Shown here: one piece after another, positions 9,678-26,945 of the stretch
Layout of the letters: the number at the start of each line of letters is the position of its first letter
Numbering within the stretch: the first letter of the stretch is position 1
Origin: Acidobacteriota bacterium
Lineage (GTDB): Bacteria; Acidobacteriota; Terriglobia; 20CM-2-55-15
Direction of reading: 5' to 3'
Assembly (NCBI GenBank): GCA_022821145.1
Contig: JAJEEE010000084.1
Span: 10,295-74,294, forward strand
DNA: 64,000 nt
Position numbers and translations under genes: made by a program
The notes under the pieces: generated by a model
What the model was told of the DNA's origin: nothing
Seen by the model: the letters and a program-made list of their open reading frames with translations, nothing else
The model's database searches: none

Positions 9678-11474
9678 CTACCGTCCCAGCGCTTCCGGGC
9701 TCAAGGTCTCGACGGCCAACGCGACGCTCGCGTTTTCCAGGACTTCAACCGCCACGCCGGCGTCCCGGTAAGCTTCGGGCGCCGGGAAACCGGCGCGGGC
9801 AACGTCCAGCCAGGCCAATAGCCGATAGTTTCCCGGGGGCGCCTGGCGAAGAACGGAACGACCGAGGTGATCGGTCATGGCCCACTTGTGGAACCCGATG
9901 CGTTCGGGAACCGGATCGGGAACGAGGAGGACTGTGGCGCCGGGCACGTCGAGGCCCTCGGAATCCACCACGTTCAGATCGATCCTGCCGCCGTCCGGCG
10001 CCAACCGAACGATCAGAGAGTTGTCCGTGTCCGCAGGGATGTCTATCAGCATGGAATCGCTCGCGGCGCCGTTGAGCGAAACCGAACTCACGTAGTAGTC
10101 GTCGGGCAGCATGCGCGGGACGACGCGGTACCGCCCGGACACCAGGTTCGGCACTTCGAACGAGCCGTCGATCGTGATGGGCCGGATCGCCGCCGATTGT
10201 TGCAGTGGCTCGAGCGGATCCAGGACGACTCCGGGTCCGCCCGAGCTTCCGGCGATACTGCCGAAGGGCTCGCGATTCGACAGGAGGATCTGCCCCCGGA
10301 GCGACCCGCTCGCCGGCGCCCGGATCAACATGTCGTCGATATCCGCCGTCCCCACCTCCAGCGGCATCCACGCATCGCGAGGCCGGAGTCGCCGTTCTCG
10401 TCGTTCCGGCCCGATGGGGTCCTCGCCCAGGCTGACTCCGACACGGTACGTCCCCTCGACAAGCTCCACCTGGAAGGCGCCGCTTTCCGCGTCGTAGTCC
10501 GCCGTTACGTAATCGACAGCCGACAATCCGAAACGCGCCGCCGAATGAACCGTCACCACGGCGTGCGGCGGCGGCGCGTCGAAGACCGTGTCCACGATCC
10601 GGCCGCGGACGCGCCGCCGCCGCGGGGGCTCGACGACGAGCGCGTCCAGTTCCGTCGTGGATCCCGCGGCGATTGCGATCGAACTCGCCGGCACGGGTTC
10701 CCCGCCGCCCGGCCAGAACGACCAGCCATATTCCGTGTCGTCGAAGTGCCGCGGCAACTCGAAATTCCATGGGAGGCCAAAGGGAAGATCCGAGTCGCCG
10801 GTGTCTCCGCCCGTCGCCACGAGATACCGCCCTGCAGGGATGCGGGTGATCCGGTACTGTCCGGTGTCGTCGGTTCGTGTCTCCGTCTCCACGACGAGAC
10901 GGCGAGTTCCGTCCACATCGAACACCGAATTCAGCAGGTAGACGCCGATGGCCTCGACCGCACGTCCGTCGACGTCAACGACGCTGCCGGTGACCCGCCC
11001 TTCGGGTGTCAGTCGTATCTCGACAGGTTCGTCGAGCCCGTCACCCATCGTCCAAGGGATACCCGGCAGTCCGGGGGCCGCCGCCCCCAGCTCGTAGTTC
11101 ACGTAGCCGTTGGCCGACGCGCCGACCCCGTAAACCCCCGGCTCGGCGGGGATGGCGAAGCGGCCGGCCGCGTCGCTCGTCGCCCGCAGGTCGGCGCCGG
11201 GCTCGAAAAATCGCAACGGCGCCGGAAGCAATCCCCCGGGAGTCGTTGAGACATCGTCGTAGAGCGCGATCTCCGCGCCCGCGATGGGCAGTCCCGATGC
11301 GGCGTCGAGCACGGTTCCCGAGAACACGCCGGGCGTTTGCGTGACAAGCGTTTCGCCTGTACACGCGGCTGCGAGCAGAACGCCGAGCAACGGCAACACA
11401 CCGAAGCGGGGAACCGTCCGGGGCCGACACGAGTTCTTCAGCGCGGGAGCCTCATGGGGCGAAGTCGTCAGCAT
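9678..11474 (-). CDS. Lipoprotein with carboxypeptidase-regulatory-like (CarboxypepD_reg) beta-sandwich domains
   Basis: Start refined to MLTTSPHEA... with GAGGAGGGG RBS. Lipobox LLAAAC. GVFSGTVLDAASGLPIAGAEIALYDD is a CarboxypepD_reg signature. Confidence 0.6.
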   Translation of the reverse strand: MLTTSPHEAPALKNSCRPRTVPRFGVLPLLGVLLAAACTGETLVTQTPGVFSGTVLDAASGLPIAGAEIALYDDVSTTPGGLLPAPLRFFEPGADLRATSDAAGRFAIPAEPGVYGVGASANGYVNYELGAAAPGLPGIPWTMGDGLDEPVEIRLTPEGRVTGSVVDVDGRAVEAIGVYLLNSVFDVDGTRRLVVETETRTDDTGQYRITRIPAGRYLVATGGDTGDSDLPFGLPWNFELPRHFDDTEYGWSFWPGGGEPVPASSIAIAAGSTTELDALVVEPPRRRRVRGRIVDTVFDAPPPHAVVTVHSAARFGLSAVDYVTADYDAESGAFQVELVEGTYRVGVSLGEDPIGPERRERRLRPRDAWMPLEVGTADIDDMLIRAPASGSLRGQILLSNREPFGSIAGSSGGPGVVLDPLEPLQQSAAIRPITIDGSFEVPNLVSGRYRVVPRMLPDDYYVSSVSLNGAASDSMLIDIPADTDNSLIVRLAPDGGRIDLNVVDSEGLDVPGATVLLVPDPVPERIGFHKWAMTDHLGRSVLRQAPPGNYRLLAWLDVARAGFPAPEAYRDAGVAVEVLENASVALAVETLSPEALGR

Positions 11475-11718
11475 CGGAATCCCCTCCTCACACCTGAATG
11501 ACGCCATGGAGTCAGTATTCTGGCGAGGCGAAGCCGATGTCAACGTATCGCGCCCATCGACGGCCCTGGCGCGACGATTCCCCGGACGTCTGCACGACAC
11601 GGCGCGCACGGAGCTCGAACAGTTGTATGATCGGCATCGACGGTCCGGCTCCGTCCAGTCGGGAATCGGCCGTCGAACCCTCCGGGTTTCCGGGGTGGTC
11701 TATCAGAGGAGAAGTCCG

Positions 11719-12567
11719 ATGAAACGCATGACACTCACCAGCATCGTGCTGACGGTCGCGCTGCTCGCGCCGGTAGCCGCGATGGCGCAGGTCGCTTGCA
11801 CGCGCGACGGGCTGCAGAACGCGGCGGATCTCTACATCGAGGCCCAGACCTCGGGCGACCGCTCGGGACTGCCGCTGCCTCCGGGCGTGGGCTACCAGGA
11901 GAACATGGCGGTCGCCGACATCGAGACGGGCCTGATCAACACGCCGATGGCGATCGACCACCACCGCAGCCTGCTCGACACGGACACGTGCCAGACGTTC
12001 ACGGAAGTGATCGTGACGGACGAGGACGCGCCCTACGTGCTCGGTACGCGGCTCCGGGTGAACGGCGACAAGATCGCCGAGGTCGAGATCCTCTGGACCA
12101 CGACCGGCTACTGGCTGTTCGACGCCGACGCCTACCTGCAGTATTCGTCCACGGAGGACTGGGGGACGATCCCCGTCCCGGAGCGCGATTCCCGCGGCAC
12201 GCTGGTGGCCGCCGCCAACGCCTACCTCGACGCGTTCCTGGAAGGGAACACCGACGACGTGCCGTGGGGCTACCCCTGCGTCCGCACCGAAGGCGGCATG
12301 CACACCGGCACGGGCTCGGACGACGATACCTGCGCGGTCGGCGTCCCCAGCGGCGTCAACATCGCCAACCGCCGATTCGTGGTCGACGAGACCATCGGTT
12401 CGGTCGTCGTGTTCTGCACCTTCGGCGCCGGCAGCCCGGGCGGCGGCAGCGGCGCGCCCGACACGCACCTGTTCCGGCTGGAGAACGGCGTCTTGCGGTA
12501 CGTGCACACGCTCACGCACCTGCTGATGTCGGACTTCGGAGGCGGCGGAGGAGGCGCAGACGATTAG
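11719..12567 (+). CDS. Secreted hypothetical protein, paralog copy 1
   Basis: GAGGAGAAG RBS and signal peptide MKRMTLTSIVLTVALLAPVAAMAQ. About 88% identical to the gene at 21015. Gly-rich C-terminus. Confidence 0.6.
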   Translation: MKRMTLTSIVLTVALLAPVAAMAQVACTRDGLQNAADLYIEAQTSGDRSGLPLPPGVGYQENMAVADIETGLINTPMAIDHHRSLLDTDTCQTFTEVIVTDEDAPYVLGTRLRVNGDKIAEVEILWTTTGYWLFDADAYLQYSSTEDWGTIPVPERDSRGTLVAAANAYLDAFLEGNTDDVPWGYPCVRTEGGMHTGTGSDDDTCAVGVPSGVNIANRRFVVDETIGSVVVFCTFGAGSPGGGSGAPDTHLFRLENGVLRYVHTLTHLLMSDFGGGGGGADD

Positions 12568-13603: not shown

Positions 13604-14542
13604 TCAGGCGACGGTCCTGAAACGCTCGAAGCGCACCGCCAGACGATCGCGGTCGGGGCGGTCTCCTGCACGTTTTGGCAGATGCAGGACACTGCCCTCA
13701 AGCTGTTTCAGAGCTTCCAGCATCGGCCCGTCGTGCTGCTCGAGGAGTTGCCCGGAAACGTGCACGCGATAGTCCGGATCGATGCCGATCAGGTGGGCGT
13801 CGAACGCGGCGTGGTGGATCTTGGATAGCGGCAGGCCGTTGGGCACGATCGGCTGGCCCAGCATCTCATCCTTGTCGGAGACGATGTGCGCCGCGTCGAG
13901 CAGGCGGTGTTCGCGCAGGCCCGACAGGGCGCAGCGCCGGTCGTATGCGGCGATGACGGCTTCGCGGAACGAATCCTGATGCAAACGCTGCTTCACGACC
14001 CGCAGGGCGTAGCGGCGTTCTGCCGCCTGCGGCAGCGGCGACAGGTCGTCCTGCTCGGGCAAGCCGAACGAGATGCTCGCCTTGAGTGCCGCCGGATTCC
14101 ATCCTGAAATGAAGGTCGGGACGATGGCTTGGTATCGGCCGGGGGCGACTCCGAGAAAGTAGATGACGGGAACATGGTGTTCGTATGCCTCGAGCAGCCA
14201 GCGGTTGTCCGCCGCTGCCGGGTCCGACCCCATGAACGCGTAGTCGACGGTCTCTTCGCCCTGGTAGATCTGCCGATGCGCTTCACGCTGATCGTCGTAC
14301 CAGACCCGGCCGCCGCGTCGCGGCACGACCGTCTTGATGGACAGCAGGAAGCGCATCTGCCGCGGTTTGAAGATGCCGCGTTGCGGATTGATGAGCGGGA
14401 TCCGCCGGCCTTCGAAGTCGAAGCCGGGCTTGAGCAAATCCGCGGTCAACTGGTCGTGGACCACGTTCAACCCGCGGACATGGTCGAAGGCGGCAAGTCG
14501 CATCCGCGCGTCGAGGGCGATGAGATCGGCGTTTCCCGGCAT
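13604..14542 (-). CDS. HNH endonuclease (HNH_2/PF13391-type) with an N-terminal about 190-aa putative DNA-sensing domain; candidate Type IV (modification-dependent) restriction enzyme
   Basis: C-terminal motif CALSGL...LDAAHIVSDKD...NGLPLSKIHHAAFDAHLIGIDPDYRVHV matches the HNH_2 signature. The architecture (sensor domain + HNH_2) resembles ScoMcrA-like enzymes. Confidence 0.7.
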   Translation of the reverse strand: MPGNADLIALDARMRLAAFDHVRGLNVVHDQLTADLLKPGFDFEGRRIPLINPQRGIFKPRQMRFLLSIKTVVPRRGGRVWYDDQREAHRQIYQGEETVDYAFMGSDPAAADNRWLLEAYEHHVPVIYFLGVAPGRYQAIVPTFISGWNPAALKASISFGLPEQDDLSPLPQAAERRYALRVVKQRLHQDSFREAVIAAYDRRCALSGLREHRLLDAAHIVSDKDEMLGQPIVPNGLPLSKIHHAAFDAHLIGIDPDYRVHVSGQLLEQHDGPMLEALKQLEGSVLHLPKRAGDRPDRDRLAVRFERFRTVA

Positions 14543-14773
14543 TGGGTCTTGAACCGGCGGCTCGGCTGTTCGCCGAATGATATTCGGGCATCCTCCTTAG
14601 TCTCAAGTGCGATATCGGACGGTCGCGACGCGGCGCGGAATCGCACCGTGGGCATCGGCCTGCGTCGTCGGGGAGTCCCAACGTGCCCATCGCCGACAAT
14701 GGCCATGCGCACAGTTCCGACTCCGGGTTCTCATGGTCATGTCAAGAGCAGCCACGCATCCATAGGAGCGGCC

Positions 14774-15103
14774 ATGGCGAACGACACGGCGCTCAGCGAT
14801 CGTATACGCCCGATGCTTGCGCGGAGGAACGGCGTTTCCGAGCGCAAGATGTTCGGGGGCGTCGGTTTCATGATCAACGGCAACATGTGTGTCGGGACGT
14901 GGAAGGGATCGCTCATCGCGCGGCTGGACATGAACGATTACGGCCGAATGCTGGCGGAGCCGCATGCGAGACCGGCGGACATGAACGGCCGTCCGATGAG
15001 GGGATGGGTGCTGGTCGAGCCGGCCGGCCTCGAAACCGAGGACGACCTGGCCGAATGGGTCGAGCGGGCCGCCGCGTTCACCCAGTCCCTGCCGGCCAAG
15101 TGA
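14774..15103 (+). CDS. TfoX N-terminal domain protein
   Basis: ERKMFGGVGFMINGNMCVG motif and about 110 aa length fit TfoX_N. AGGAG RBS. Confidence 0.6.
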   Translation: MANDTALSDRIRPMLARRNGVSERKMFGGVGFMINGNMCVGTWKGSLIARLDMNDYGRMLAEPHARPADMNGRPMRGWVLVEPAGLETEDDLAEWVERAAAFTQSLPAK

Positions 15104-15208: not shown

Positions 15209-15604
15209 ATGGCCACGACCAGCATCACCGTCCGCAACCTCGATGACCACGTGAATACCGGCTTGCGCGTGCGAGCGGCGAACGACGGTGGTTCCATGGA
15301 GAAGGCAGCGCGGCTGACTACGCGCGAGGCGGTCGGCCGCAAGCCGAGTAACCGAAATCTGACCGGCATCATCCGATCGCATTTCGGCCCGGACAACGGC
15401 GTCGATTCAGAGTTGTCACCATTCTGTACTCGAAACCTCAGGAACTGTGTGGAGAGTGCGACGTCTTGGTCACCGTCGATTTCACGGCTGGGCGTCGACT
15501 ACGCGGCAGGTCCGTATCGAAGCACGGCGTGTGAACGATCACCTGTCGTCAGTCGTCTAGCCGAGAACTGTCCTGCCTCGACACGGGAGCCGGCTGAAGA
15601 ATAA
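15209..15604 (+). CDS. Ribbon-helix-helix antitoxin-like protein (FitA/VapB-type) with an unusual C-terminal extension; no cognate toxin follows
   Basis: MATTSITVRNLDDHVNTGLRVRAANDGGSMEKAARLTTREAV is the classic Arc/RHH antitoxin N-terminus. The ORF runs to 131 aa and overlaps the convergent 372-aa gene. No PIN toxin ORF is found downstream. Confidence 0.5.
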   Translation: MATTSITVRNLDDHVNTGLRVRAANDGGSMEKAARLTTREAVGRKPSNRNLTGIIRSHFGPDNGVDSELSPFCTRNLRNCVESATSWSPSISRLGVDYAAGPYRSTACERSPVVSRLAENCPASTREPAEE

Positions 15605-16667
15605 CGTAACCATCGACGACCAACTTCTGATCCAGCGCTTCCACTTTCCGCTGAAATTCCGACGGCGTCATCTGGTTCTCGTCGAGCAACGAGTACTGAT
15701 CCACGTAGCCCTGGAGTACGCCGTGGCATGCGACAAGTTTACGCAGCGCTGGAACGTTTTTCTCCGTGTCCACCTCAACCGTGCGCTTCGCTTCCTTGGG
15801 CGGCCAGGGAATCCAGGATCCGTCCCCGCCAACGGAGAGGTGAATCTTATTCCGCAACTCGTTAATGCGTTCTTCTTCGCTCCGCTTCTCGTCGTTGACG
15901 AAATTCAGCCACGAGGCCACTTCGCTTAGCGGAACGTCGGACGCAAACTCGCCAGCCATGAACCGCTCTGGATGTTGGCCTAAAAAGTCGCGCTCTACGA
16001 TTCGTCGGGCTTGCCTCGCCCAGAATGTGAAGTCGTCTTCCAAGTTGCGTCTGGCGGCACCTACCATTCCCAGTTCCGCCGAGCACTTGGCGGTCGCAAG
16101 AGATGTCAGTGCGAAGTATTCCTGGCACGCCATGGCCGTCTCGGTCGGAGATTCAGGGAGTAGTTCCTGGTACTTCTCCTTGATCGGTCCGAAAACGTTC
16201 AGAATTCCGTGAAGCAACTGTTGTTCACGCGCATCCACGGAGCCTTCTTGCATGACCATCGAAAGGTATTTCAGGGCGCTCTTCAGCTTGGCGCGTTCGT
16301 CCAATTCCAGCAGTCGTGCTATTCCGTCCACTGAGTCCTTCAGCGCTTTCAGATTGTCGTCGAGTTTCGTCAGTTTGGCATGAATAATGCCGAATCCCAC
16401 GGCGCTGACTGCTAGGTTCAAGCCGGAAAAATGCATCGCGCGCGCTGCGTGTTGCAACACGACGTCGGGGGTGCCGACTTCCCCCACGGGGATCAAGTGC
16501 CGGATGATTCGGCCTGCTCCGTCGTGACCCTGTGCGACGCGGATCACGCCGCCCGACAAGTCAAAAACTCCGCTCTTGACTCCTGCGATGACATCCTGAG
16601 GGATTGATCGAGCGACAGTCCATCCGTGCAGAAAATCCGGAAGATTTTGGCTGGTCACGAGCGCCAT
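15549..16667 (-). CDS. Hypothetical protein (372 aa) with an N-terminal globular region, one hydrophobic segment (LNLAVSAVGFGIIHAKL) and a long coiled-coil-rich C-terminal part; lies in the AT-richer core of the 13.6-17.8 kb accessory island
   Basis: No recognisable family. Local sequence is AT-richer (roughly mid-50s %GC by eye) than the rest of the window. It has its own sigma70-like promoter. Confidence 0.5.
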   Translation of the reverse strand: MALVTSQNLPDFLHGWTVARSIPQDVIAGVKSGVFDLSGGVIRVAQGHDGAGRIIRHLIPVGEVGTPDVVLQHAARAMHFSGLNLAVSAVGFGIIHAKLTKLDDNLKALKDSVDGIARLLELDERAKLKSALKYLSMVMQEGSVDAREQQLLHGILNVFGPIKEKYQELLPESPTETAMACQEYFALTSLATAKCSAELGMVGAARRNLEDDFTFWARQARRIVERDFLGQHPERFMAGEFASDVPLSEVASWLNFVNDEKRSEEERINELRNKIHLSVGGDGSWIPWPPKEAKRTVEVDTEKNVPALRKLVACHGVLQGYVDQYSLLDENQMTPSEFQRKVEALDQKLVVDGYVILQPAPVSRQDSSRLDD

Positions 16668-16936: not shown

Positions 16937-17773
16937 TCAGTTATTTCTCTGAATCAGCTCAACCCTTTGCCGCACGAACCACCGGTAGAATTTCCTGGTG
17001 TTCAGAAAAGTCGGCGGTCTTGCGCTGCGCTGAATATAACCGTCGTTCACCGATAGGCCGCCCCACTTCTTGAGCAAACTGGGACGCACGCGATAGGCGC
17101 GGTCGCGCCATTCGCCGATTGGGATGCACTTGGTCAGACGCCCGGACACAGTCGCCTTGGCACGTACGACGATGTCGGCAACGGCAATTTTGCGGACGCG
17201 GGTATGGGCGTTGATCTTGAAGTGCTTTGCGCGAATCGAAACGGCTGGCAGAACGTCATCGACGACGAATAGACCGACCAACCCGTAAACCAGCTTTCGC
17301 GGCTCTCGAACTGACCGAAGACCGGCGTAGAAGACCAGGAGGTCGCCGTCCGATAGATGTTTGAGTCCGGTGCCGCGCTTGTCGCCGTTGTCGCCGTAGG
17401 TCAGCCACTCGAAGTCCGGGTCCAGATGCATCGAACGATCAAGCAAGCGCGGCGGAGGTCCAAGACGACTTTCGAGACCGATGCTCGAAGCGAACTGCTG
17501 CAAAGACGGGAGAATTTCACGGTACGGTCGCTCGAGACCAGGCCGGAAGGGGCGGCTTTCGGGAATCGGTACGTACACGAATCGACCGGATTCCGGGTCG
17601 AGCGGAGCGTTCCATTCCCCATACGCTTGGTCCACGCCCACTCGAATCAGAATCGCCTTCATCTCTGGTGCCAACTGCTCGTCGATCCAAGAGCGGGTGT
17701 TCTGACCGGCTCGCAGTGTCTCGTCCACTTCGAATGTTAGTGTGTCTGCGGTTTCCGCGCCGAGCTGAAGCAT
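16937..17773 (-). CDS. Hypothetical protein (278 aa), in the AT-richer core of the island
   Basis: Conserved-looking core LIRVGVDQAYGEWNAPLDPESGRFVYVPIPE and a basic C-terminus (KKWGGLSVNDGYIQRSARPPTFLNTRKFYRWFVRQR) that may bind nucleic acid. No family recognised. Confidence 0.5.
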   Translation of the reverse strand: MLQLGAETADTLTFEVDETLRAGQNTRSWIDEQLAPEMKAILIRVGVDQAYGEWNAPLDPESGRFVYVPIPESRPFRPGLERPYREILPSLQQFASSIGLESRLGPPPRLLDRSMHLDPDFEWLTYGDNGDKRGTGLKHLSDGDLLVFYAGLRSVREPRKLVYGLVGLFVVDDVLPAVSIRAKHFKINAHTRVRKIAVADIVVRAKATVSGRLTKCIPIGEWRDRAYRVRPSLLKKWGGLSVNDGYIQRSARPPTFLNTRKFYRWFVRQRVELIQRNN

Positions 17774-17984: not shown

Positions 17985-20516
17985 CTACCTGCTGACGTTG
18001 ATCCTGGTTCCACCAGCCGGACCGCCGGCGCCCGGACCGCCGGGGCCGCCGGTGCTGGCCGCACCGCTGGCGTCCGCGACCACAAGCTTGACCCACAGGG
18101 CCTCGTCATCGCGGTAGTGTGACGTCTCGCTGGCGTCGCGCAGCGCAGCCAGGCTGCTTTGTTCCGCGCCCACGGCGGCGGTTGTGAACTCGGGAAGCTC
18201 GAAAATCACGAAGGAGCCCGGGTCCATTTCCTGCAAGGAGAGGGACAGCGTCTCCCTGGATGTCTCGACCCGGACCTCGGCGCCGCTGCCGATCGTGGTT
18301 CCCCCGTTGTATTCGAACCGCCTGCCATTGCGTTGGAGGATGATCGGATTGGTAATGGGGCCCGTCTGGAACCCGCTGAAATTGCCGGCGATGCTCAAGC
18401 GGCCCATGTCCCCCGTGCACACGGCGGCGTTCCAGGACTGCCTGATCTCACAGACGTCTTCGTCGGATGCGATTCCGTTGTCGATGACTATGTAGGCGCC
18501 GGGAGTGCCGCTGACCGAGCCGTCCACGTCATGGAACGCCGCACTCCTGTAGGCGGCGCTGCGTCCGTAATCGGACGCCCAACGGCGTTGGATCGGAGGG
18601 AAGCTGACCGGCTTGGCGTTGACGAATGTCGCGCCCTCGACCCAGTTGTTGGTGCTCATGCCGAAGCTGGTGAACAACAGGTAGGAGAGTGCGCCCGCAT
18701 CGCGAAGCTCGTTGGGCTCGTAGTTCACGAAAGTGACGTTTTCCACTTCGTGGTGGAAATCGTAGAACTCGTAGCCGCGAATCGGGAAATCCGGGGCCGC
18801 GGACGGCAGGCTGCGGCCGTAAGCCACTTCCTCGGGACTGGTGGGGTTTCCTACGTTGTCGCTCTCCCCCACGAACAGAGAGTCGACGACCCGCGACGTG
18901 TAGGGCGCGGCGCCGACAATGCCGGCCGCATGGGTAAAGCCGATCGCGTTGTCGGCCAGTTTCAAATTGGTGTACAGGTGCATCTCACCGCGGCCCCAGA
19001 CGGCGCCATTGCGGTTCTTGTAGCCGGTGAAATCATCGAAGTGCGCCACCACCACCTCGCTGTTCTCATCGGCGGGATCGGCGCGGCTGACAAGGTTGGG
19101 GCCGGCGATACCGAACGTGCCGTCGGGGCGGGGGCCGCGGTCGAGCATCAGGCCATCGAAATTGGAGTGGGCGGTATTGCCTCTGAACTCCCGCAGCCTG
19201 GACCGTCCGGGCCAGGTATTGGCGCTGATCTCCGTGCCTTCGAACGCCCCGATCGGATGCGTGGGAAAGGCCATCCAGTAGCCGACCTGGTCGGAACCCG
19301 CCGCCACGTTGTCACGGTAGATGTTGTCGGGGTGCGTGATCCAGAAAGTGGAGGCGGTGTTGTCCGAGGGGATCAGGACATGCTCGGACCGCTGGCCCTC
19401 CGTGGACTGATGAGGCAGAAAAAGGTTGGTCGGGTTGCAGGGCAAGGTCGGATGGCACTTGGTCTGGATTCCCAGGTTGCGAACGACCTGGTTGCCCGTC
19501 TCGATGCCGTCTTCCATGAAGAAGCAGTGCCCCACGGTGTTGTAGGTGACATTGTTCTCGACGAGCAGATTATCCGTGCCATGAATGGTCACGCAGCGGT
19601 TGAACGTGTCGTGAATCGCGGAGTTCTTGATGTATTGCCCCGTCACGTCGCCGTTGAGATGCCAGTGGATCGGGTACCGGGCGAGCTCCAGATGCTGACC
19701 CATTCGAGTCAACTCGATGCCGGCGACATTCATCGTGCTCCCGTCCATCGCCATGATATGCCCGCCGAAATAGGAGTCTTCGGAGTCGGCGGAAGCCTGA
19801 ATCTTGATATTGCGCGTCAGCAAACCGACTTCGCCGCGTTGATCGACGTCGAACGTGATCTCGCCGAAATGCATGTATTCGAGCGGCTGATCCAGCGTGA
19901 TCACATTGCCCTGAACACCGGAAATGAGCCGCTTCTCCGCCTGCCTCGGGTTGAAATCCGTGGACGCCAGAACAATCGCGTCACCGACTCGCCACTGGCT
20001 CGCGTCGAGAACTTCGATCGTGGTGGCGCCCGCCTCGGCGGTTGCCGCCAGCTTGGTCCACGCGTTTTCCCGATCACCGTACAGGCTCAGCACTCCGCCT
20101 TGAATCAGGATCCCGCGGTCACCCATTTCGTTGATGTTCTCATCCGGAACATTGTCGGTCAGGGTTATCGTCGCATTGCGCGTGTGAGGATCCGTTTCAC
20201 TGCCGGCATGCAGCTCGCCGCGCAGCAGAATCCACTCGGTCGTGAACTCGACATCGTTCTCGTTGGAAAAGCTGAGCTGTCCGTCGAGATTCATCCCGTG
20301 CAGCGCCGGCGGGCTGACGTCGAGGACGACGTCCATGCCCTCGCCGATGGTGACGATGTCACCCTCCCCCGGGACCGCGCCGTCCGACCAGGTGGACGGA
20401 TCCGACCAGAGTCCCCCGCTGACCGCCGAGGCGCCTTGCTCCTGCGCTGCGGCGCTGACGGCGAAACAGGCTGAAACCAGCAATGAGAAAAGAGACAAGC
20501 GATTGCGAATTTGCAT
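17985..20516 (-). CDS. G8-domain / right-handed beta-helix secreted protein
   Basis: Start refined to MQIRNRLSLFSLLVSACFAVSAAAQ (GGGGAG RBS). GGLWSDPSTWSDGAVPGEGDIVTI is the G8 domain start. Parallel beta-helix repeats follow. C-terminal Gly/Pro-rich tail. Confidence 0.75.
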   Translation of the reverse strand: MQIRNRLSLFSLLVSACFAVSAAAQEQGASAVSGGLWSDPSTWSDGAVPGEGDIVTIGEGMDVVLDVSPPALHGMNLDGQLSFSNENDVEFTTEWILLRGELHAGSETDPHTRNATITLTDNVPDENINEMGDRGILIQGGVLSLYGDRENAWTKLAATAEAGATTIEVLDASQWRVGDAIVLASTDFNPRQAEKRLISGVQGNVITLDQPLEYMHFGEITFDVDQRGEVGLLTRNIKIQASADSEDSYFGGHIMAMDGSTMNVAGIELTRMGQHLELARYPIHWHLNGDVTGQYIKNSAIHDTFNRCVTIHGTDNLLVENNVTYNTVGHCFFMEDGIETGNQVVRNLGIQTKCHPTLPCNPTNLFLPHQSTEGQRSEHVLIPSDNTASTFWITHPDNIYRDNVAAGSDQVGYWMAFPTHPIGAFEGTEISANTWPGRSRLREFRGNTAHSNFDGLMLDRGPRPDGTFGIAGPNLVSRADPADENSEVVVAHFDDFTGYKNRNGAVWGRGEMHLYTNLKLADNAIGFTHAAGIVGAAPYTSRVVDSLFVGESDNVGNPTSPEEVAYGRSLPSAAPDFPIRGYEFYDFHHEVENVTFVNYEPNELRDAGALSYLLFTSFGMSTNNWVEGATFVNAKPVSFPPIQRRWASDYGRSAAYRSAAFHDVDGSVSGTPGAYIVIDNGIASDEDVCEIRQSWNAAVCTGDMGRLSIAGNFSGFQTGPITNPIILQRNGRRFEYNGGTTIGSGAEVRVETSRETLSLSLQEMDPGSFVIFELPEFTTAAVGAEQSSLAALRDASETSHYRDDEALWVKLVVADASGAASTGGPGGPGAGGPAGGTRINVSR

Positions 20517-20719
20517 GGATCTAGACTCCCCGTACCGACCCAGGTTTCTCGGACACGAGTAACATACCATAGTCACGCGGACGGTTCGAAGGCAAGACGG
20601 CCGCGCGCATCAGGCGCGGCAGCCGCACCTTCGATGGCCGGACGCCGGCCATGCTGGGGCGCGCCCGGATGTTGCGACGACCTTCCCCGCTCAACGGCGA
20701 CGCGGCGATCACCTGCCGG

Positions 20720-20943
20720 ATCTTTATCCGCTCCCGCGACAGCTCGTTGTCCATTACCAGACCCGTCACGGCCGATTTCAGCGTCTGGGTCTCCTCGTCG
20801 ACCGCCTCCGCGAGGCGGCTTTTCAATCCTGCCTCGTCGGCCGCCGGATACGCGTATCGCCACCGCATCAGCGTCGCCGCCGTCACCCCGTGCTTTCGGC
20901 TCGTCGCCTCCAATTCGGCCCCGCGCAACGGTTCCAAGACCAC
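20720..20943 (-). mobile_element. IS3/IS911-family transposase OrfA remnant (5'-truncated, no OrfB)
   Basis: VLEPLRGAELEATSRKHGVTAATLMRWRYAY...LKSRLAEAVDEETQTLKSAVTGLVMDNELSRERIK matches the HTH plus leucine-zipper region of IS3 OrfA. It lacks the first 25 or so residues and any DDE catalytic part. Confidence 0.45.
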
Positions 20944-21014
20944 CGTGGCCTTCCAGCGCGCCGACCACCGACCCTCCGAAACACTCCCCGGGGGCGCACC
21001 AGAGGGGAAGTTCG

Positions 21015-21855
21015 ATGAAACGCATCACTCCGGTTTGGATCGTGCTGACCGCCGCTCTGCTCGTCCCGACAGCCGCGTTCGCCCAAATTGCCTGCACGCG
21101 CGACGGGTTGCAGAACGCGGTCGATCTCTACATCGCTGCCCAGACCTCGGGGGATCGATCCGGCCTGCCGCTGCCGCCGGGCGTGGGCTACATGGAGAAC
21201 GTGGCGATCGCCGACATCGAGACCGGCCTGATCAACACGCCGATGGTGATCGACCACCACCGCAGCCTGTTCGACACGGACACCTGCCCGACCTTCACGG
21301 AAGTGATCGTGACGGACGAGGACGCGCCCTACGTCCTCGGCACGCGACTCCGCGTCAACGGCGACAAGATCGCCGAGATCGAGATCCTGTGGACCACGAC
21401 GGGCTACTGGCTGTTCGACGCCGACGCGTACCTGCAGTATTCCTCGACGGAGGACTGGGGCCCGATCCCGGTCGCGGACCGCGACTCGCGCGGCACGCTG
21501 GTGGCCGTCGCCAACGCCTATCTCGACGCGTTTCTGGAAGGGAACACGGACATCGTGCCATGGGGTTATCCCTACGTCCGCACCGAAGGCGGCACGTACA
21601 CCGGCACGGGTTCGGACGACGACACCTGCGCGGTCGGCGTCCCCAGCGGCGTCAACAGCGCCAACCGCCGATTCGTCGTGGACGAGACCATCGGGTCTGT
21701 CGTCGTGTTCTGCACGTTCGGTGCCGGCACCCCGGGCGGCGGCAGCGGCGCGCCCGCCACGCACCTGCTTCCGGGTGGAGAACGGCGTCCTGCGCTACGT
21801 CCACACGTCGACGCACCTGCTGATGTCGGACTTCGGGGGCGGGGCGGACAACTAG
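21015..21855 (+). pseudogene. Paralog copy 2 of the secreted hypothetical protein, with a 1-nt insertion near the 3' end (about 21770) shifting the frame
   Basis: About 88% nt identity to 11719..12567 starting about 45 bp upstream of the ATG. CTGCTTCCGGGTGGAG here versus CTGTTCCGGCTGGAG in copy 1. The original frame resumes to ...SDFGGGADN* ending at 21855. Could be a sequencing error. Confidence 0.5.
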
Positions 21856-21897
21856 CTTCGTCAAAGAAGGCGCCAAGACGTTGCGAAAAATTCGGCA

Positions 21898-21927
21898 CGG
21901 ACCAGTGGGCACCGTCCCACTGGTCCG
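21898..21927. terminator. Bidirectional hairpin terminator between paralog 2 and the convergent DUF2075 gene
   Basis: CGGACCAGTGGG caccgt CCCACTGGTCCG: a 12-bp perfect stem followed by GATTTCAG. Confidence 0.55.
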
Positions 21928-21947
21928 GATTTCAGCATTGGGCACGA

Positions 21948-23951
21948 TCACCTAATGTCAGTGCACCCGGCCTGGCGGAGGATCCGTGCAACTTGATCGA
22001 ATTCCGTTGGTTGTCGCGTCGAATCGGCCGCATCACCAACGGGAACGAGTATCGCCATTCCTGCACGTGCACGGGTGAGCAGTACCCTGTAAGTGTTGAT
22101 TCGATGCTGACGGGTCTTCGGCTCCTTGACATTGCTCCATCTTGGGGCGCGAATCTTGCGTGGGATCCATTGATCGCCACGCCAAATCAGGTCGTTCCCC
22201 CAGCAGACACCGGCGTAATCAACTTCGAGCCCCTGGCAAACAAATTCCGAAAGCGGCACCTCGAGGGCATTCGACGAGCGGAAGTCACCTGTCGGCCGCA
22301 AGAACCAGTGGACGACTTGTTGTAATTCGTTGGACCTTGGGGACGGCGGAATACCGTCTGCAATAAGCCTCTTAGCGCCAGAACTTACGAGCAGCCCAAC
22401 CCGCCGCTCTCCCCGCTTCCGCTCCGATAGCCAAGCTCGCAAAGTAGCAACGTCACGCGTTATGTGTGCTGGAGGCTGCTGCATTTCGTTGGCTATACGA
22501 GCCGCATCTTCGATCCGGCCGATCAGGAGCGCTTCAACCCAACGTCCGTGGAGAGGGTTCCTGTAGGCTCGCAAATTGGTTTCGAGATGGAGACTTGGAT
22601 CCAAGTGAAATTCAAGTTCTCTGATATCGACCGTATCGCCCAAACCCTTAAGGCCACCCCGTTCATGCAGCGCTGCCTTGCTGGCGTATCCCGACCATCC
22701 GTCAACGTCCGCGATTGCTTGTGCCCACAGTGGAAGTCCACCCTCACCGCGATTAATCTCTTGGCCGGGGCCGACCAAGCAAACCAAACAGGCCCAACGA
22801 AGGCGGCCCATGATTTCGAGGAACAGTTGCGGCTCTGAGACCTCTCGACCCAAGAGTCGGAGCCCAGACTGCGCATCCCACGCACGCTGCGCCTCGTCGA
22901 AGACAACTACATGTTCCGGAGGTTTCGACCGGGGATCTTGGTGATCCTTGAGATAGCCGAGAAGAGTCTGGAGGGCTTGCTGTGCCTGCCGTTGAGCGTC
23001 TCGTTTGGATGTTCCAATCCGCTTTTTCGCATCCTCTGCGATCGCTTCCTGGAGCACGTAGACCAGAGGCCGATTGCCGCTAAGCAGCACGGCCGGTTCA
23101 CCGGCCACACGGCCCGACATGCCCGCAAAAACGAGGTCCAAACCGAGAAGAGTCTTGCCTGAACCCGGCTCTCCAGTGACAAAACAAACGATCTTCTTAC
23201 GCTCGGAACGCGCGAACTCGACAAGTTCGGCCAATCGTCTGGACGTGCGCGTTATCGCTTCGCCGGATGCATCCGCTCGGCCAATTTCCTTAACGGAATG
23301 ACCGGCATAGAGCGAACGTGCTGCTGTCACAATGTCAGGTGTGGGATTGTACGAGGCGGAGTCAAAAGTGGACCAAGAAATCTGCTTGCCCATAGCAAGA
23401 TGAGCGATGGAGTTTAAGGCGTCGCTCAAGCTCTCCGAGTTGGCCAAGACGCAACTGCTGACTGTCTCGAGACAATTCAGTTTGTGAGTGCAAGCGCTGT
23501 TTGGCCCGTGTTCCACACAGAGCAATGGAACAATTCGACGTGTCTTGCAGTCCTCATGAAAGTCTCTTAGGCACAAGGCATAGTCGACCGCCTGGTCAAC
23601 ATCGCTTGTAACGAACGCGGTGCCCCCGGTTTTGAACTCCAAGCAGATGACCCAGTCTTTGATCAACAGCACTGTGTCGATCCGCCGTCCGAGTCGGAGC
23701 AGTGGATATTCTAGGAGAATTCCCCATTTCAGACTGTCTTGTCGAGTAACAGCGAGGGCTTGACGCAATATACGGATCTGGGAGCGCCATGCTTCAATTT
23801 GCTGGGATTCGTCTCCTGTGTGCTCGATACTCACCCTAGTGGCCAAGAACCCGATCACATGGTCGGGATCGCTCGCGAGAAACCGCTCCACCGTCGATCC
23901 GAAGAAAGCTTTTTTCGACGAACGTGATTCAACGCTGTGCATTGATGCCAA
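21948..23951 (-). CDS. DUF2075 (Schlafen-like SF1 ATPase) protein with an N-terminal PD-(D/E)xK nuclease-like domain; candidate stand-alone defence protein
   Basis: Walker A CFVTGEPGSGKT and the characteristic C-terminal TYRVLLTRARAGMAILVP motif identify DUF2075. N-terminus has E...RIDTVLL...CLEFK (D/ExK). The gene region is AT-richer than the flanks. Confidence 0.8.
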   Translation of the reverse strand: MASMHSVESRSSKKAFFGSTVERFLASDPDHVIGFLATRVSIEHTGDESQQIEAWRSQIRILRQALAVTRQDSLKWGILLEYPLLRLGRRIDTVLLIKDWVICLEFKTGGTAFVTSDVDQAVDYALCLRDFHEDCKTRRIVPLLCVEHGPNSACTHKLNCLETVSSCVLANSESLSDALNSIAHLAMGKQISWSTFDSASYNPTPDIVTAARSLYAGHSVKEIGRADASGEAITRTSRRLAELVEFARSERKKIVCFVTGEPGSGKTLLGLDLVFAGMSGRVAGEPAVLLSGNRPLVYVLQEAIAEDAKKRIGTSKRDAQRQAQQALQTLLGYLKDHQDPRSKPPEHVVVFDEAQRAWDAQSGLRLLGREVSEPQLFLEIMGRLRWACLVCLVGPGQEINRGEGGLPLWAQAIADVDGWSGYASKAALHERGGLKGLGDTVDIRELEFHLDPSLHLETNLRAYRNPLHGRWVEALLIGRIEDAARIANEMQQPPAHITRDVATLRAWLSERKRGERRVGLLVSSGAKRLIADGIPPSPRSNELQQVVHWFLRPTGDFRSSNALEVPLSEFVCQGLEVDYAGVCWGNDLIWRGDQWIPRKIRAPRWSNVKEPKTRQHRINTYRVLLTRARAGMAILVPVGDAADSTRQPTEFDQVARILRQAGCTDIR

Positions 23952-24086
23952 TGAAAGTGGGTCAGTGGAGTAAGGGCTTAAGCGTACGGGCCGCTGCCGA
24001 CCGACGTGCTTGCGTCTAACGGACTGCTAATCCAGGCGCAGAGCACAGTCGCGTCTTCGCGACACGCTTCAGACGACACGTCGACG

Positions 24087-24335
24087 TCAGGGAGAACGCC
24101 CGTCGCCATCAATGACGTCTTGTAAGGACGCCGTGTCGATCAAATCAACGCCCGGCCTGACCCCGGTTCCATGAAACACGGGAAGCTCAACCGTAGGACG
24201 CTCGGTTGCGCCGCGCCGCGACAGGGACTCACGGAGGGCATCGTGGATGACGGCCGTCAACGTCCGTCCCGATTCCGCTGCGATGCGCCTCAACTCGGCG
24301 AAGAGGTCGTCGTCCAAACGCATGATCACGCGCAT
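24087..24335 (-). CDS. RHH antitoxin (VapB-like), orphan
   Basis: MRVIMRLDDDLFAELRRIAAESGRTLTAVIHDALRESLSRR...LPVFHGTGVRPGVDLIDTASLQDVIDGDG matches the mycobacterial VapB pattern. Only 135 bp separate it from the DUF2075 gene and no PIN toxin is present. Confidence 0.6.
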   Translation of the reverse strand: MRVIMRLDDDLFAELRRIAAESGRTLTAVIHDALRESLSRRGATERPTVELPVFHGTGVRPGVDLIDTASLQDVIDGDGRSP

Positions 24336-24470
24336 ATGCAACAAGTTACTCGCATAACCTGTCGTTATCAAACGCTCGGCGGTTGCGAACGTCGATCTCC
24401 GGCTCACGGAAGGAACCGATTCCACTCTCTCAGCGTACGTGATTGGCGCGAGCCAGAAAGGCCCGTTGGA

Positions 24471-26945
24471 TCAGGGGTCGGACAGCCCCGCCCCCATGAT
24501 CCGGGTGCGTAGCGCCTCGACGCTCGATTCCCGGCCCTGGAACAGGTCGGCCGGGAACCGGAGATGAGCGAGGATCGAGTCGCGGATCGGCGTTCCCAGG
24601 TTGTTGTTGAACCCGGCGCCCGCCAGGTACTGGAGGCGCAGGTTCCGGTCGGTGTTGATCCGGGCGCCGGCGGCCCACTCCCGCAGATCCGCGCCGCGCC
24701 CGGAGTACGTTTCCAGTACGTCCGGAACCGATCGGTAACCGACTCCCGCCAGTGACGTTTTGACCGCGTCGAAGGCCGCGCTGTCGATACGGTCCTGCCA
24801 GGCGTCGACGTCGATCGGCGTGGCCGCCGCATCCTCGGCGCGCCCGGCCAGCACCAGGTCGTAGCCCCGCCCGTCGAGGGTGTCGTTCCGCCAGACCGTG
24901 CCGTCGGGAAAGACCTCGAGAAACGTCGCGATCACGCTCCGCACGGCGTCGGGAGTACTTTCGTACAACGGCACCCACTGCGTCACGACGCCGCCCGGAT
25001 TGAGGCGCGCCTTCACGTGCTGGAAGTACTCCCGCGTGTACAGCGTGGCCGCGCCCTTCACCCAGGGGTGGATCGGGTCCGACGTGATGATGTCGAACGT
25101 CTCCCGGGTCGTGAGCACGTAGTGGCGGGCGTCGTCGTACACGAACTCGACCCTGCGATCGGCCGCCGCGTCGTGGTTGACGTCGCGGAAGTACGTCGAC
25201 ACGACTCGTGGAATCAACGGCTCCAGCTCGCATACGACGATGCGCTCGACTGTGGGGTGGGTGCCGACGGCGCCGGTGGTGACGCCCGAGCCGAAGCCGA
25301 CGACGAGCGCGCTGCGCGGTCCGTCGCCGTGCATCAACGCCGCCAGGTGACCCAGCAGGCGCTGGAGGCGCATGTCCTGCGGTTCGGTGGAGGCCTCGAC
25401 CTTGCCGCTGACGTGGAAGTTGCGTTGGCCGTTGAAGTCCTCGGTCACGGCGACGGACGCGTTGATGCCTTCGCCCACGTACAGGGCGTTGGGTGGGCCC
25501 TGCCATGGGAGTTGCCGGCCCCACGCCACAAGTCCCGCCGGTACCGTCGGCACGCGGGATGCGGTCCAGACGCCCGCACCGAGCAGGAGGGCAAACGCTG
25601 TGGCCGCGCTTCGGCCCGCCGTGGCGAACCGTTCTCCGTGGGATGTCCGTAAAGCCGGCGCCAACGCAACGGCTGCCGAGACCATCGAGACGGCGGCCAA
25701 CAGGCGCTGGGCGCCGCCGGTTCCCAGGAGGGGGATGCCGGCCAGACCGACGAGAAGCGCGCCGAATATGGCGCCGAGCGTGTTGGCGGCGTAGAGGCGG
25801 CCGACGACAGCGCCTGTGTCGCCGGACGGAAGCGCGGCGGCGGCCACGGCCAGGGGGAAGCTCGCGCCCCAGAGCAATGCGGCGGGCAGCATTGCGACGA
25901 GCGCGCGGGCGAAGTCGATCTGGAAGTGGAACCAGACGCTGGGAGCGAGCGACGGATCGACGGGCCAGTAGGGGAGCTGGCCGGCGGCCATCCACGCGCC
26001 GTATGCGATGGCGAAGGCCAACGCGAGCTGCGTCCACGCCAGGGCGGCGCGGGCGTGAGTGGTTGTCCGGGCGATCAGGGCGCCGGCGGCGCTGCCGATG
26101 CCGAGACCCATGAGGAAGACGGCGAGGATGACCGAGAAGGCATAGGTGGTGCCGCCGAACAGGAGCGAGAGCAGGCGCGTCCAAGCGACCTCCGCGCCGA
26201 GCGCGGTAAAGCCCGACAGCGCGATGGCGGCGTGGACGCCGCGCGGCGCCCACGGCCGGGCCGGCGGGGTCCGCGGGGGCGCTTCCGGTTCGTCGCTGGT
26301 TTCGGGCGGGGCGTACCGGGCGCGCTTCGAGAGCAGGTAGGCGCCGGCGGCAACGACGGCGTTGACGGCGACGGCCGTCAGGGCCGCCGTCGTTACGTCA
26401 TGGACGCGCAGCAGGTAGAAACCGGCGGCGACACAGCCCGCCACCGCGCCCAGTATGTTGCCGCCGTAGACGTACCCGAGCCACGCGACGCCTTCGGGCG
26501 TGGCCCGAACGTATCGCGAAATCGCAGGCAGCGTGGCGCCCATCAGCATCGTGGGCGGCAGGAGCAGGATGCCGGCGGCGACGGCGCGGAGCGCGATGCT
26601 GGACGTGCCGCCGCCGTCGACGGCGGTGTAGAGGCGGCCCACGAGCGGCATCAGCACGATCAGCAGCGCGCCCGCCGCGGCGATCAAGACTTCGAGCGCC
26701 GCGTAGACGCGCAGCGGGTGCCGGGCGGGAGAAACCCACCGCGGCAGCAGCAGCGCGCCGGCGCACATCCCGCCCATGAAGGCGCCGAGCAGCACGGCCA
26801 ACGAAACGGCCGAGGCGCCGAGCACCAGCTCGAGCGTCTGGAACCAGGCGATCTCATAGATCAGCGCCGCGCAGCCGGAGGCGGCGAAAAGGAGCACCAT
26901 AGCGGGGAGGTAGCGGGCGGAGGGCGCGGCTTGCGACGAGTTCAT
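24471..26945 (-). CDS. Fused membrane (MFS-like) domain plus spermidine synthase-like polyamine aminopropyltransferase
   Basis: 12 or more TM helices N-terminally. C-terminal LVVGFGSGVTTG...VVCELEPLI...DDARHYV...FDIITSDPIHPW motifs are SpeE-like. This is a known fusion family. Confidence 0.8.
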   Translation of the reverse strand: MNSSQAAPSARYLPAMVLLFAASGCAALIYEIAWFQTLELVLGASAVSLAVLLGAFMGGMCAGALLLPRWVSPARHPLRVYAALEVLIAAAGALLIVLMPLVGRLYTAVDGGGTSSIALRAVAAGILLLPPTMLMGATLPAISRYVRATPEGVAWLGYVYGGNILGAVAGCVAAGFYLLRVHDVTTAALTAVAVNAVVAAGAYLLSKRARYAPPETSDEPEAPPRTPPARPWAPRGVHAAIALSGFTALGAEVAWTRLLSLLFGGTTYAFSVILAVFLMGLGIGSAAGALIARTTTHARAALAWTQLALAFAIAYGAWMAAGQLPYWPVDPSLAPSVWFHFQIDFARALVAMLPAALLWGASFPLAVAAAALPSGDTGAVVGRLYAANTLGAIFGALLVGLAGIPLLGTGGAQRLLAAVSMVSAAVALAPALRTSHGERFATAGRSAATAFALLLGAGVWTASRVPTVPAGLVAWGRQLPWQGPPNALYVGEGINASVAVTEDFNGQRNFHVSGKVEASTEPQDMRLQRLLGHLAALMHGDGPRSALVVGFGSGVTTGAVGTHPTVERIVVCELEPLIPRVVSTYFRDVNHDAAADRRVEFVYDDARHYVLTTRETFDIITSDPIHPWVKGAATLYTREYFQHVKARLNPGGVVTQWVPLYESTPDAVRSVIATFLEVFPDGTVWRNDTLDGRGYDLVLAGRAEDAAATPIDVDAWQDRIDSAAFDAVKTSLAGVGYRSVPDVLETYSGRGADLREWAAGARINTDRNLRLQYLAGAGFNNNLGTPIRDSILAHLRFPADLFQGRESSVEALRTRIMGAGLSDP

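Follow-up and report, generated by a model that had tools for sequence, protein, structure and literature searches.

An Nhi-like nuclease-helicase gene, probably a stand-alone and horizontally acquired defence gene, beside an orphaned vapB in an Acidobacteriota genome

Results

Organization and composition of the locus

The stretch of DNA analysed here (the window) comprises 64,000 nucleotides from an Acidobacteriota bacterium (Terriglobia; 20CM-2-55-15), corresponding to positions 10,295 to 74,294 on the forward strand of contig JAJEEE010000084.1 (GenBank assembly GCA_022821145.1). Its reverse strand carries a gene for a protein in which a nuclease domain is fused to a DUF2075 ATPase domain and, upstream of this gene, a small ribbon-helix-helix (RHH) gene. 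Sequence comparisons place the nuclease-ATPase gene as a divergent member of the already verified and catalogued Nhi-like defence family rather than as a new system. The coordinates of all features are given in Table 1.

The open reading frame (ORF) delimited mechanically runs over 21948..23951 on the reverse strand, encodes 667 amino acids (aa), and opens at a TTG codon (23951). The true start of the coding sequence (CDS) is most likely the ATG at 23942, because this is where database entry P0001, an identical protein of 664 aa, begins and where the DNA homology of the closest relatives begins as well. Residue numbers follow the 667-aa numbering. The gene is AT-richer than its surroundings, as a sequence-only reading of the window had noted. 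Its GC content is 0.561, the value for the whole window is 0.670, and its GC content at third codon positions (GC3) is 0.585, compared with 0.88–0.93 in the flanking native genes (a spermine-synthase-like gene, an M28 peptidase gene, and the duplicated genes). The gene is compositionally foreign and horizontally acquired. In blastn comparisons, the window DNA matches the closest relatives (72–79% aa identity) only within the ORF, from 23947 to 21950; therefore, the transferable unit is the nuclease-ATPase gene alone. The ORF is intact, and the ratio of nonsynonymous to synonymous substitution rates (dN/dS) between the gene and its relatives is 0.09–0.14, indicating purifying selection.

Neither a Shine-Dalgarno-like sequence nor a promoter is evident upstream of the gene. 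A promoter of its own would have to sit in the spacer that precedes the CDS, and transcription could start there or reach the gene by read-through from the promoter of the RHH gene. About 22 nt 5′ of the ATG at 23942 weakly resemble the stop-codon region of the DUF4420 gene found in the relatives; the blastn homology did not reach there.

Domain architecture and catalytic motifs

The protein is a fusion of a PD-(D/E)xK nuclease and a Schlafen-type DUF2075 ATPase, as had been proposed from the sequence: the motifs are present, and Pfam and fold comparison agree with the assignment. The N-terminal domain contains EYPLLRLGRRIDTVLLIKDWVICLEFK at residues 81–107, and its combination of E81, D92, ExK, and QxxxY corresponds to the RecB/Cas4-type motif set of PD-(D/E)xK families. 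The C-terminal domain matches PF09848 with an E-value of 2.3e-63 over residues 254–636 (profile positions 2–352 of 354), and TYRVLLTRARAGMAILVP is found at residues 620–637. The putative catalytic residues E81, D92, E105-F-K107, Q120, and Y124 are invariant across 26 diverse homologues with identities down to 50%, as are G260..GKT267 of Walker A and D352-E353 of Walker B. Sequence searches of the PDB with the full-length profile and with the profile of the N-terminal domain gave nothing significant, and fold comparison was used instead. Foldseek matched the protein to SLFN11, Upf1, SLFN14, Dna2, and RecD, with SLFN11 and SLFN14 as the best matches.

The two domains are joined by a linker (residues 201–228; 23268–23351 on the reverse strand), whose motif, Y-x-P-[TS]-P-x-[IM]-[VL]-x-A-A-[RK]...G-R-x-D-A, is almost invariant; the beginning of the motif can still be recognized in the 28%-identical Bacillus protein described below (YEPSPSMLEAARS). 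The linker has low confidence in the full-length AlphaFold2 model, with predicted local distance difference test values of 42–49.

Assignment to the Nhi-like family

Among the PADLOC models, PDC-S41 is the best match to the window protein, with an E-value of 7e-210 over residues 14–666 (profile positions 3–653 of 657). The PDC systems are 145 untested PADLOC candidates, picked because their members occur within BREX, DISARM, or type I restriction-modification (RM) loci (bioRxiv 10.1101/2024.01.29.577857), and a literature search on the name 'PDC-S41' found no papers. The Nhi-like system (SG141) has been verified as a single-gene defence with a nuclease plus DUF2075 architecture, and a partial sequence of the verified protein, from Bacillus cereus FSL H8-0482, is available in Table S2 of Millman et al. 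(bioRxiv 10.1101/2022.05.11.491447). The window protein is 28% identical to this fragment over 412 columns (BLASTP E-value of 5e-37), and the alignment is collinear through the nuclease and ATPase motifs. A protein encoded by the B. cereus C1L megaplasmid (pC1L1; locus L093, 4040–5851) is 88% identical to the fragment and represents its orthologue. The family profile aligns with this orthologue from end to end (hhalign probability of 100%, E-value of 4.7e-51, 564 aligned columns). The orthologue matches PDC-S41 with an E-value of 1e-114, compared with only 9e-6 for the PADLOC Nhi model. Because the orthologue from the verified lineage and the window protein both match PDC-S41, PDC-S41 and Nhi-like are one family that includes the window protein. 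The suspected link to a defence family is thus borne out at the level of family membership.

The nuclease plus DUF2075 architecture was already noted in 2019 (Nucleic Acids Research, PMC6765204). More than 6,500 homologues with the full-length architecture were found in Proteobacteria, Acidobacteriota, Verrucomicrobiota, Bacteroidota, Bacillota, Planctomycetota, and Chloroflexota. The Nhi-like instances listed by Millman et al. include Sulfitobacter guttiformis DSM 11458 (bioRxiv 10.1101/2022.05.11.491447), and P0032, a protein of S. guttiformis that may be the product of the listed gene, shares 61% identity with the window protein across 98% of its length. The Nhi-like orthologue is carried by 46 Bacillus megaplasmids. 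Full-length homologues with 33–35% identity are encoded by a human faecal contig of 12.7 kb labelled 'Bacteriophage sp.' (H16; MT836127.1, 10060–12009) and by two Persicobacter plasmids (H1 and H2); the phage contig and the plasmids indicate that the Nhi-like family also moves on mobile elements.

Membership in the sequence family of Nhi from Staphylococcus epidermidis was considered and rejected. The PADLOC Nhi model (PDLC02372) matches the window protein with an E-value of 0.0076 and covers only residues 253–274, the P-loop.

Genomic contexts of the homologues

Possible partners were surveyed in 80 genomes encoding a homologue, with the ORFs within 5 kb taken into account. A phmmer search of all these ORFs found no RHH-like gene adjacent to the homologue in any locus; one weak match (E-value of 0.012) lay 1.8 kb away on the opposite strand. 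Clustering of the flanking ORFs yielded at most an XRE-type helix-turn-helix (HTH) gene, near about 9 of the 80 homologues (upstream on the same strand in six cases), and a cytosine methyltransferase gene (6/80). When 149 immediate neighbours were scanned with Pfam and PADLOC, no family occurred in more than three of them and no conserved partner emerged. The absence of an obligatory partner in the 80 genomes agrees with the single-gene definition of Nhi-like, with the caveat that the gene of the nearest clade often follows a DUF4420 gene.

This linkage is seen in the closest relatives, which are 72–79% identical to the window protein. DUF4420 or a resolvase gene lies upstream in all five contexts, DUF4420 in four of them, and an RHH gene in none. 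In three of these contexts, DUF4420 and the nuclease-ATPase gene are on the same strand with a gap of 12 bp, and in the fourth DUF4420 context a Vsr gene and an unannotated ORF lie between them. The 79%-identical homologue (L081/L082) is stand-alone. The close relatives sit in defence islands, and the nearest of them co-reside with cytosine methyltransferases. No remnants of the DUF4420-type cluster were found in the window. The only other adjacency of an RHH gene and a nuclease-ATPase gene occurs in an identical contig (L089).

The upstream RHH gene and the vapC stub

The RHH gene lies 135 bp upstream of the TTG at 23951 and 144 bp upstream of the ATG at 23942. Its product has weak Pfam matches to VapB_antitoxin, PSK_trans_fac, and RHH_1. 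Its homologues form 445 clusters, and the identity is 54–79% among the best 120 of them; some are named CopG family regulators or match VapB_antitoxin, and two are from Gemmatimonadota metagenome-assembled genomes. In five of the six contexts of close homologues (L087, L088, L094, L095, and L096/97), a PIN gene of 145–152 aa overlaps the stop codon of the RHH gene by 14 nt (20 nt in L094).

A 5′ stub of such a PIN toxin gene, vapC, is retained in the window. It begins in the 14-nt overlap register of the partners in L087, L088, L095, and L096, but its start codon has been lost. The segment from 24100 to 24050 encodes GVLPDVDVSSEACREDA, compared with MVLPDVNVLVAAYRDDA in the intact PIN partners. 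In a blind tblastn search the stub reached an E-value of only ~1.5 in 64 kb, yet at the single predicted position. The nucleotide alignment is unbroken from vapB through the stub to 24051–24053, and decayed vapC similarity may extend to about 24000. The window has no intact PIN gene: tblastn searches with the partner PIN proteins found only the stub, and a 44-aa ORF gave no PIN match. Because the relatives carry an overlapping PIN gene and the window keeps a vapC stub in the expected register, the RHH gene is an orphaned canonical vapB. The DNA homology shows that two unrelated segments meet near 24050, and the Nhi-like cassette occupies the place of the remaining vapC. The earlier statement that the RHH gene lacks a PIN partner therefore holds for an intact gene, whereas the start-less stub had been overlooked. 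A palindrome at the start of the RHH gene, which had also been pointed out, is present (GCATATGC, 24332–24339), but it merely spans the ATG of vapB, where the homologues have GCATGC, and many chance occurrences of an 8-bp palindrome are expected in 64 kb.

The sixth context (L085/L090) has a 74%-identical vapB followed by a vapC that retains 36 codons and diverges after codon 16. Downstream of the truncated vapC in L090 (10001–17260) lie HATPase_c_3, Dcm/Vsr, Eco57I-type, and BsuBI-type genes. Thus, the window and L090, which come from unrelated genomes, both have vapC cut within about 10–50 nt of the same point, at approximately codons 16–33, and different defence cargo follows in each. The intact vapBC copies in L088 and L094 border variable RM-type or defence genes.

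Other features of the window

A hairpin lies between the nuclease-ATPase gene and a convergent pseudogene. The fold, 71 nt long, reaches −28.3 kcal/mol (z = −3.2 against shuffled sequences), and its U-run is displaced, 8 nt past the stem. The sequence-only reading called it a strong bidirectional terminator. The hairpin itself is real, and we infer that it probably stops transcription of both convergent genes; the terminator scan, which is uninformative for this host, did not report it. The pseudogene is a frameshifted duplicate, as had been recognized, of the gene at 11704–12545, and its frame is broken by a 1-nt insertion near 21768. The proposed IS3 OrfA remnant is plausible, although its HTH_Tnp_1 match is below the Pfam threshold.

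The direct copies at 11704–12545 and 21000–21842 (an 843-bp segment) bracket an 8.5-kb stretch that holds an HNH endonuclease gene, a TfoX_N ORF, a JukB-like ORF, an Nmad3 gene, a gene for a G8/CEMIP beta-helix protein, and the possible IS3 OrfA remnant. This stretch could be a composite island between paralogues, or the duplication could have been created by an insertion. A first low-GC island (GC3 of ~0.67) is formed by the reverse-strand ORFs 15549–16667 and 16937–17773. The former encodes 372 aa with a partial match to the PADLOC JukB model (E-value of 2e-17, best stretch at residues 18–59) and no Pfam match. An Nmad3 (nucleotide-modification-associated domain 3) gene lies upstream of it, and the two may be another defence pair. 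The HNH_2 endonuclease (13604–14542, reverse strand, 312 aa) matches the PADLOC HNH model with an E-value of 3.5e-26; the TfoX_N ORF (14129–15103, forward strand) overlaps its gene on the opposite strand, and these gene calls are in conflict. The reverse-strand ORF 17985–20576 encodes an 863-aa protein that combines a G8 domain with a CEMIP-type beta-helix (Pfam E-value of 3e-82), and its GC3 of 0.80 is slightly below that of the native genes. The pair of a G8 domain and a CEMIP beta-helix is best known in animal CEMIP/KIAA1199-like proteins.

Table 1. Features of the nuclease-ATPase locus and its surroundings (window coordinates)
Feature	Position	Strand	Remarks
Nhi-like (PADLOC PDC-S41) nuclease-helicase CDS, 664 aa	21948..23942	−	ORF, Pfam, PADLOC, homology
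N-terminal RecB-type PD-(D/E)xK nuclease domain, aa 12–200	23352..23918	−	
Nuclease residues E81, D92, E105-x-K107, and Q120xxxY124	E81, 23709–23711; D92, 23676–23678; E105-x-K107, 23631–23639	−	
DUF2075 / SLFN-g3_helicase SF1-type ATPase domain, aa 254–636	22044..23192	−	Pfam PF09848
Walker A, GEPGSGKT, aa 260–267	23151–23174	−	
Walker B, D352-E353	22893–22898	−	
Motif-VI-like YRVLLTRAR	22065–22091	−	
Spacer between vapC stub and Nhi-like start, ~107 bp	23943..24049	−	No recognizable homology or origin
vapC (PIN toxin) 5′ stub	24050..24100	−	Start codon lost (GGC); 14-nt overlap register
vapB, RHH antitoxin, 82 aa, orphaned	24087..24335	−	Homologues, weak Pfam; GC3 0.72
Perfect hairpin, 12-bp stem and 6-nt loop	21898..21927		Between the convergent Nhi-like gene and duplicated pseudogene
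Frameshifted paralogue of gene 11704–12545	21000..21842	+	Convergent with Nhi-like gene; 88.6% identity
Possible IS3-type OrfA (HTH_Tnp_1) remnant	20521..20943	−	E-value 4.4e-4; 20.9 bits vs Pfam cutoff of 24.1

Discussion

The window protein corresponds closely to Nhi-like as described by Millman et al. in 2022. Both are single proteins with a PD-(D/E)xK nuclease at the N-terminus and DUF2075 at the C-terminus, and they are homologous from end to end. They share the motifs E..RRxD..LLI..IExK, YxPxP..AAR, GEPGxGKT, LSGNxPLVxVLQ, FDEAQRAWD, GQEIxxGExGGLxLW, and YRVxLTRxR, and the best PADLOC model is the same for the window protein and the Nhi-like orthologue. PDC-S41 itself was proposed as a single-gene candidate on the principle of guilt by embedding (Payne et al., 2024 preprint). 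At the sequence level, nothing sets the window protein apart from it. Nhi from S. epidermidis (SERP2475; Bari et al., 2022) has the same domain order, a PD-(D/E)xK nuclease followed by a DUF2075 superfamily 1 (SF1) helicase, and likewise provides immunity as a single protein. However, Nhi and Nhi-like have no sequence identity according to Millman et al. (bioRxiv 10.1101/2022.05.11.491447), and phages escape them differently: escape from Nhi involves a core replication protein of the phage, whereas escape from Nhi-like involves a phage DNA methylase. Nhi is likely a functional analogue of the window protein, in which a helicase feeds DNA to a nuclease. The group III Schlafen proteins (SLFN5, SLFN11, SLFN13, and SLFN14) have a C-terminal ATPase of the same Pfam family (PF09848). 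In contrast to the window protein, their N-terminal domain is a Schlafen core RNase domain rather than a PD-(D/E)xK nuclease, and the overall TM-scores are low (~0.2).

It is quite likely that the locus as a whole represents a stand-alone, horizontally acquired Nhi-like defence gene beside an orphaned VapB. The DUF2075 domain would act as an SF1-type motor that engages or translocates on invading DNA, and the RecB-type nuclease domain would cut the engaged DNA, resulting in anti-phage or anti-plasmid defence. Degradation by a combined helicase and nuclease has been shown biochemically for Nhi, which is analogous but non-homologous (bioRxiv 10.1101/776245). A defence function of the window protein is likely, judging from the family to which it belongs. 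As for its target, phages escape the Bacillus Nhi-like protein by inactivating their own DNA methylase, and the authors concluded that methylation of the phage DNA sensitizes the phage (bioRxiv 10.1101/2022.08.27.505566). The most specific hypothesis available is that methylated foreign DNA is the target and that the protein acts in an ATP-dependent, modification-dependent mode resembling type IV restriction. Methylation dependence of the window protein is given a lower likelihood and is conceivable rather than probable, because the identity to the verified protein is 28% and the nearest relatives co-reside with cytosine methyltransferases.

In its history, a cassette of one gene length (~2.1 kb) would have arrived downstream of a vapBC module whose toxin survives as the stub. 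Compared with intact VapBC, the window RHH protein is 65–79% identical to VapB proteins encoded ahead of overlapping PIN genes, and the promoter-proximal sequence and the overlap geometry are kept. However, the toxin gene has been cut to a start-less stub of ~17 codons; thus, the module is no longer a toxin-antitoxin system. VapB would be at most an incidental source of read-through transcription and not a dedicated partner.

Several points weigh against a stand-alone defence gene with Nhi-like activity. The genes immediately flanking the 80 diverse homologues are of mixed kinds, housekeeping genes among them, and the family-wide link to defence islands is therefore modest. The target specificity may differ from that of the verified protein, since the identity is only ~28%. 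A sigma-70 promoter scan of 20400–25000 found no sites; this is a weak objection, because the scan relies on an E. coli-type consensus and is uninformative for this host.

The sequence-only reading suggested co-option of the orphan RHH protein as a transcriptional regulator of the nuclease-ATPase gene, so that the two would form a regulator-effector pair. The genes share a strand and lie 135–144 bp apart, and no terminator-like hairpin was called between them; therefore, read-through from the autoregulated vapB promoter is possible. The XRE-type HTH genes near some homologues also indicate that small regulators beside the family are not unheard of. Conservation of the pairing should nevertheless be visible in the relatives, and it is not: a related RHH gene is adjacent in 0/80 loci, and its place in the five closest contexts is taken by DUF4420 or a resolvase. 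By the standard that the sequence-only reading set for itself, this lack of recurrent adjacency refutes the pairing, and the domain assignment passes. Moreover, the RHH protein is a standard VapB with relatives that have an overlapping PIN gene, and the vapC stub, near whose end the unrelated DNA segments join, lies between the two genes. We consider a dedicated regulator-effector pair unlikely.

Alternatively, the protein could serve DNA repair or recombination rather than immunity, either in housekeeping or in the maintenance of a mobile genetic element, as a Dna2/AddB-type enzyme with a nuclease and an SF1 helicase. Its architecture and fold do resemble those of Dna2 and RecB-family nuclease-helicases, and many neighbours of the distant homologues are housekeeping genes. 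However, the distribution is sporadic, the composition is foreign, and a family member, Nhi-like, has verified anti-phage activity. In addition, PADLOC chose the family because its members lie inside BREX, DISARM, or type I RM systems, and the close relatives are found in defence islands. This alternative is very improbable, and a stand-alone Nhi-like defence gene is the preferred explanation.

The truncation of vapC in two genomes raises the idea that defence cassettes repeatedly land or recombine at its 5′ end, where VapB, deprived of its toxin co-repressor, would drive or modulate transcription of the downstream cargo. We regard this as doubtful, with two truncated cases behind it. For the interpretation of defence loci, the orphan VapB cautions that a regulator-like gene beside a defence gene can be the wreckage of an earlier module rather than a partner.

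Three aspects of the locus are mildly new: PDC-S41 and Nhi-like are equivalent, one clade shows tight linkage to DUF4420, and vapC has been truncated twice independently beside defence cargo. The equivalence matters because database users could otherwise count one family twice or deem it unvalidated. The value of the locus lies mainly in annotation, as a divergent addition from a high-GC host to a validated single-protein defence family.

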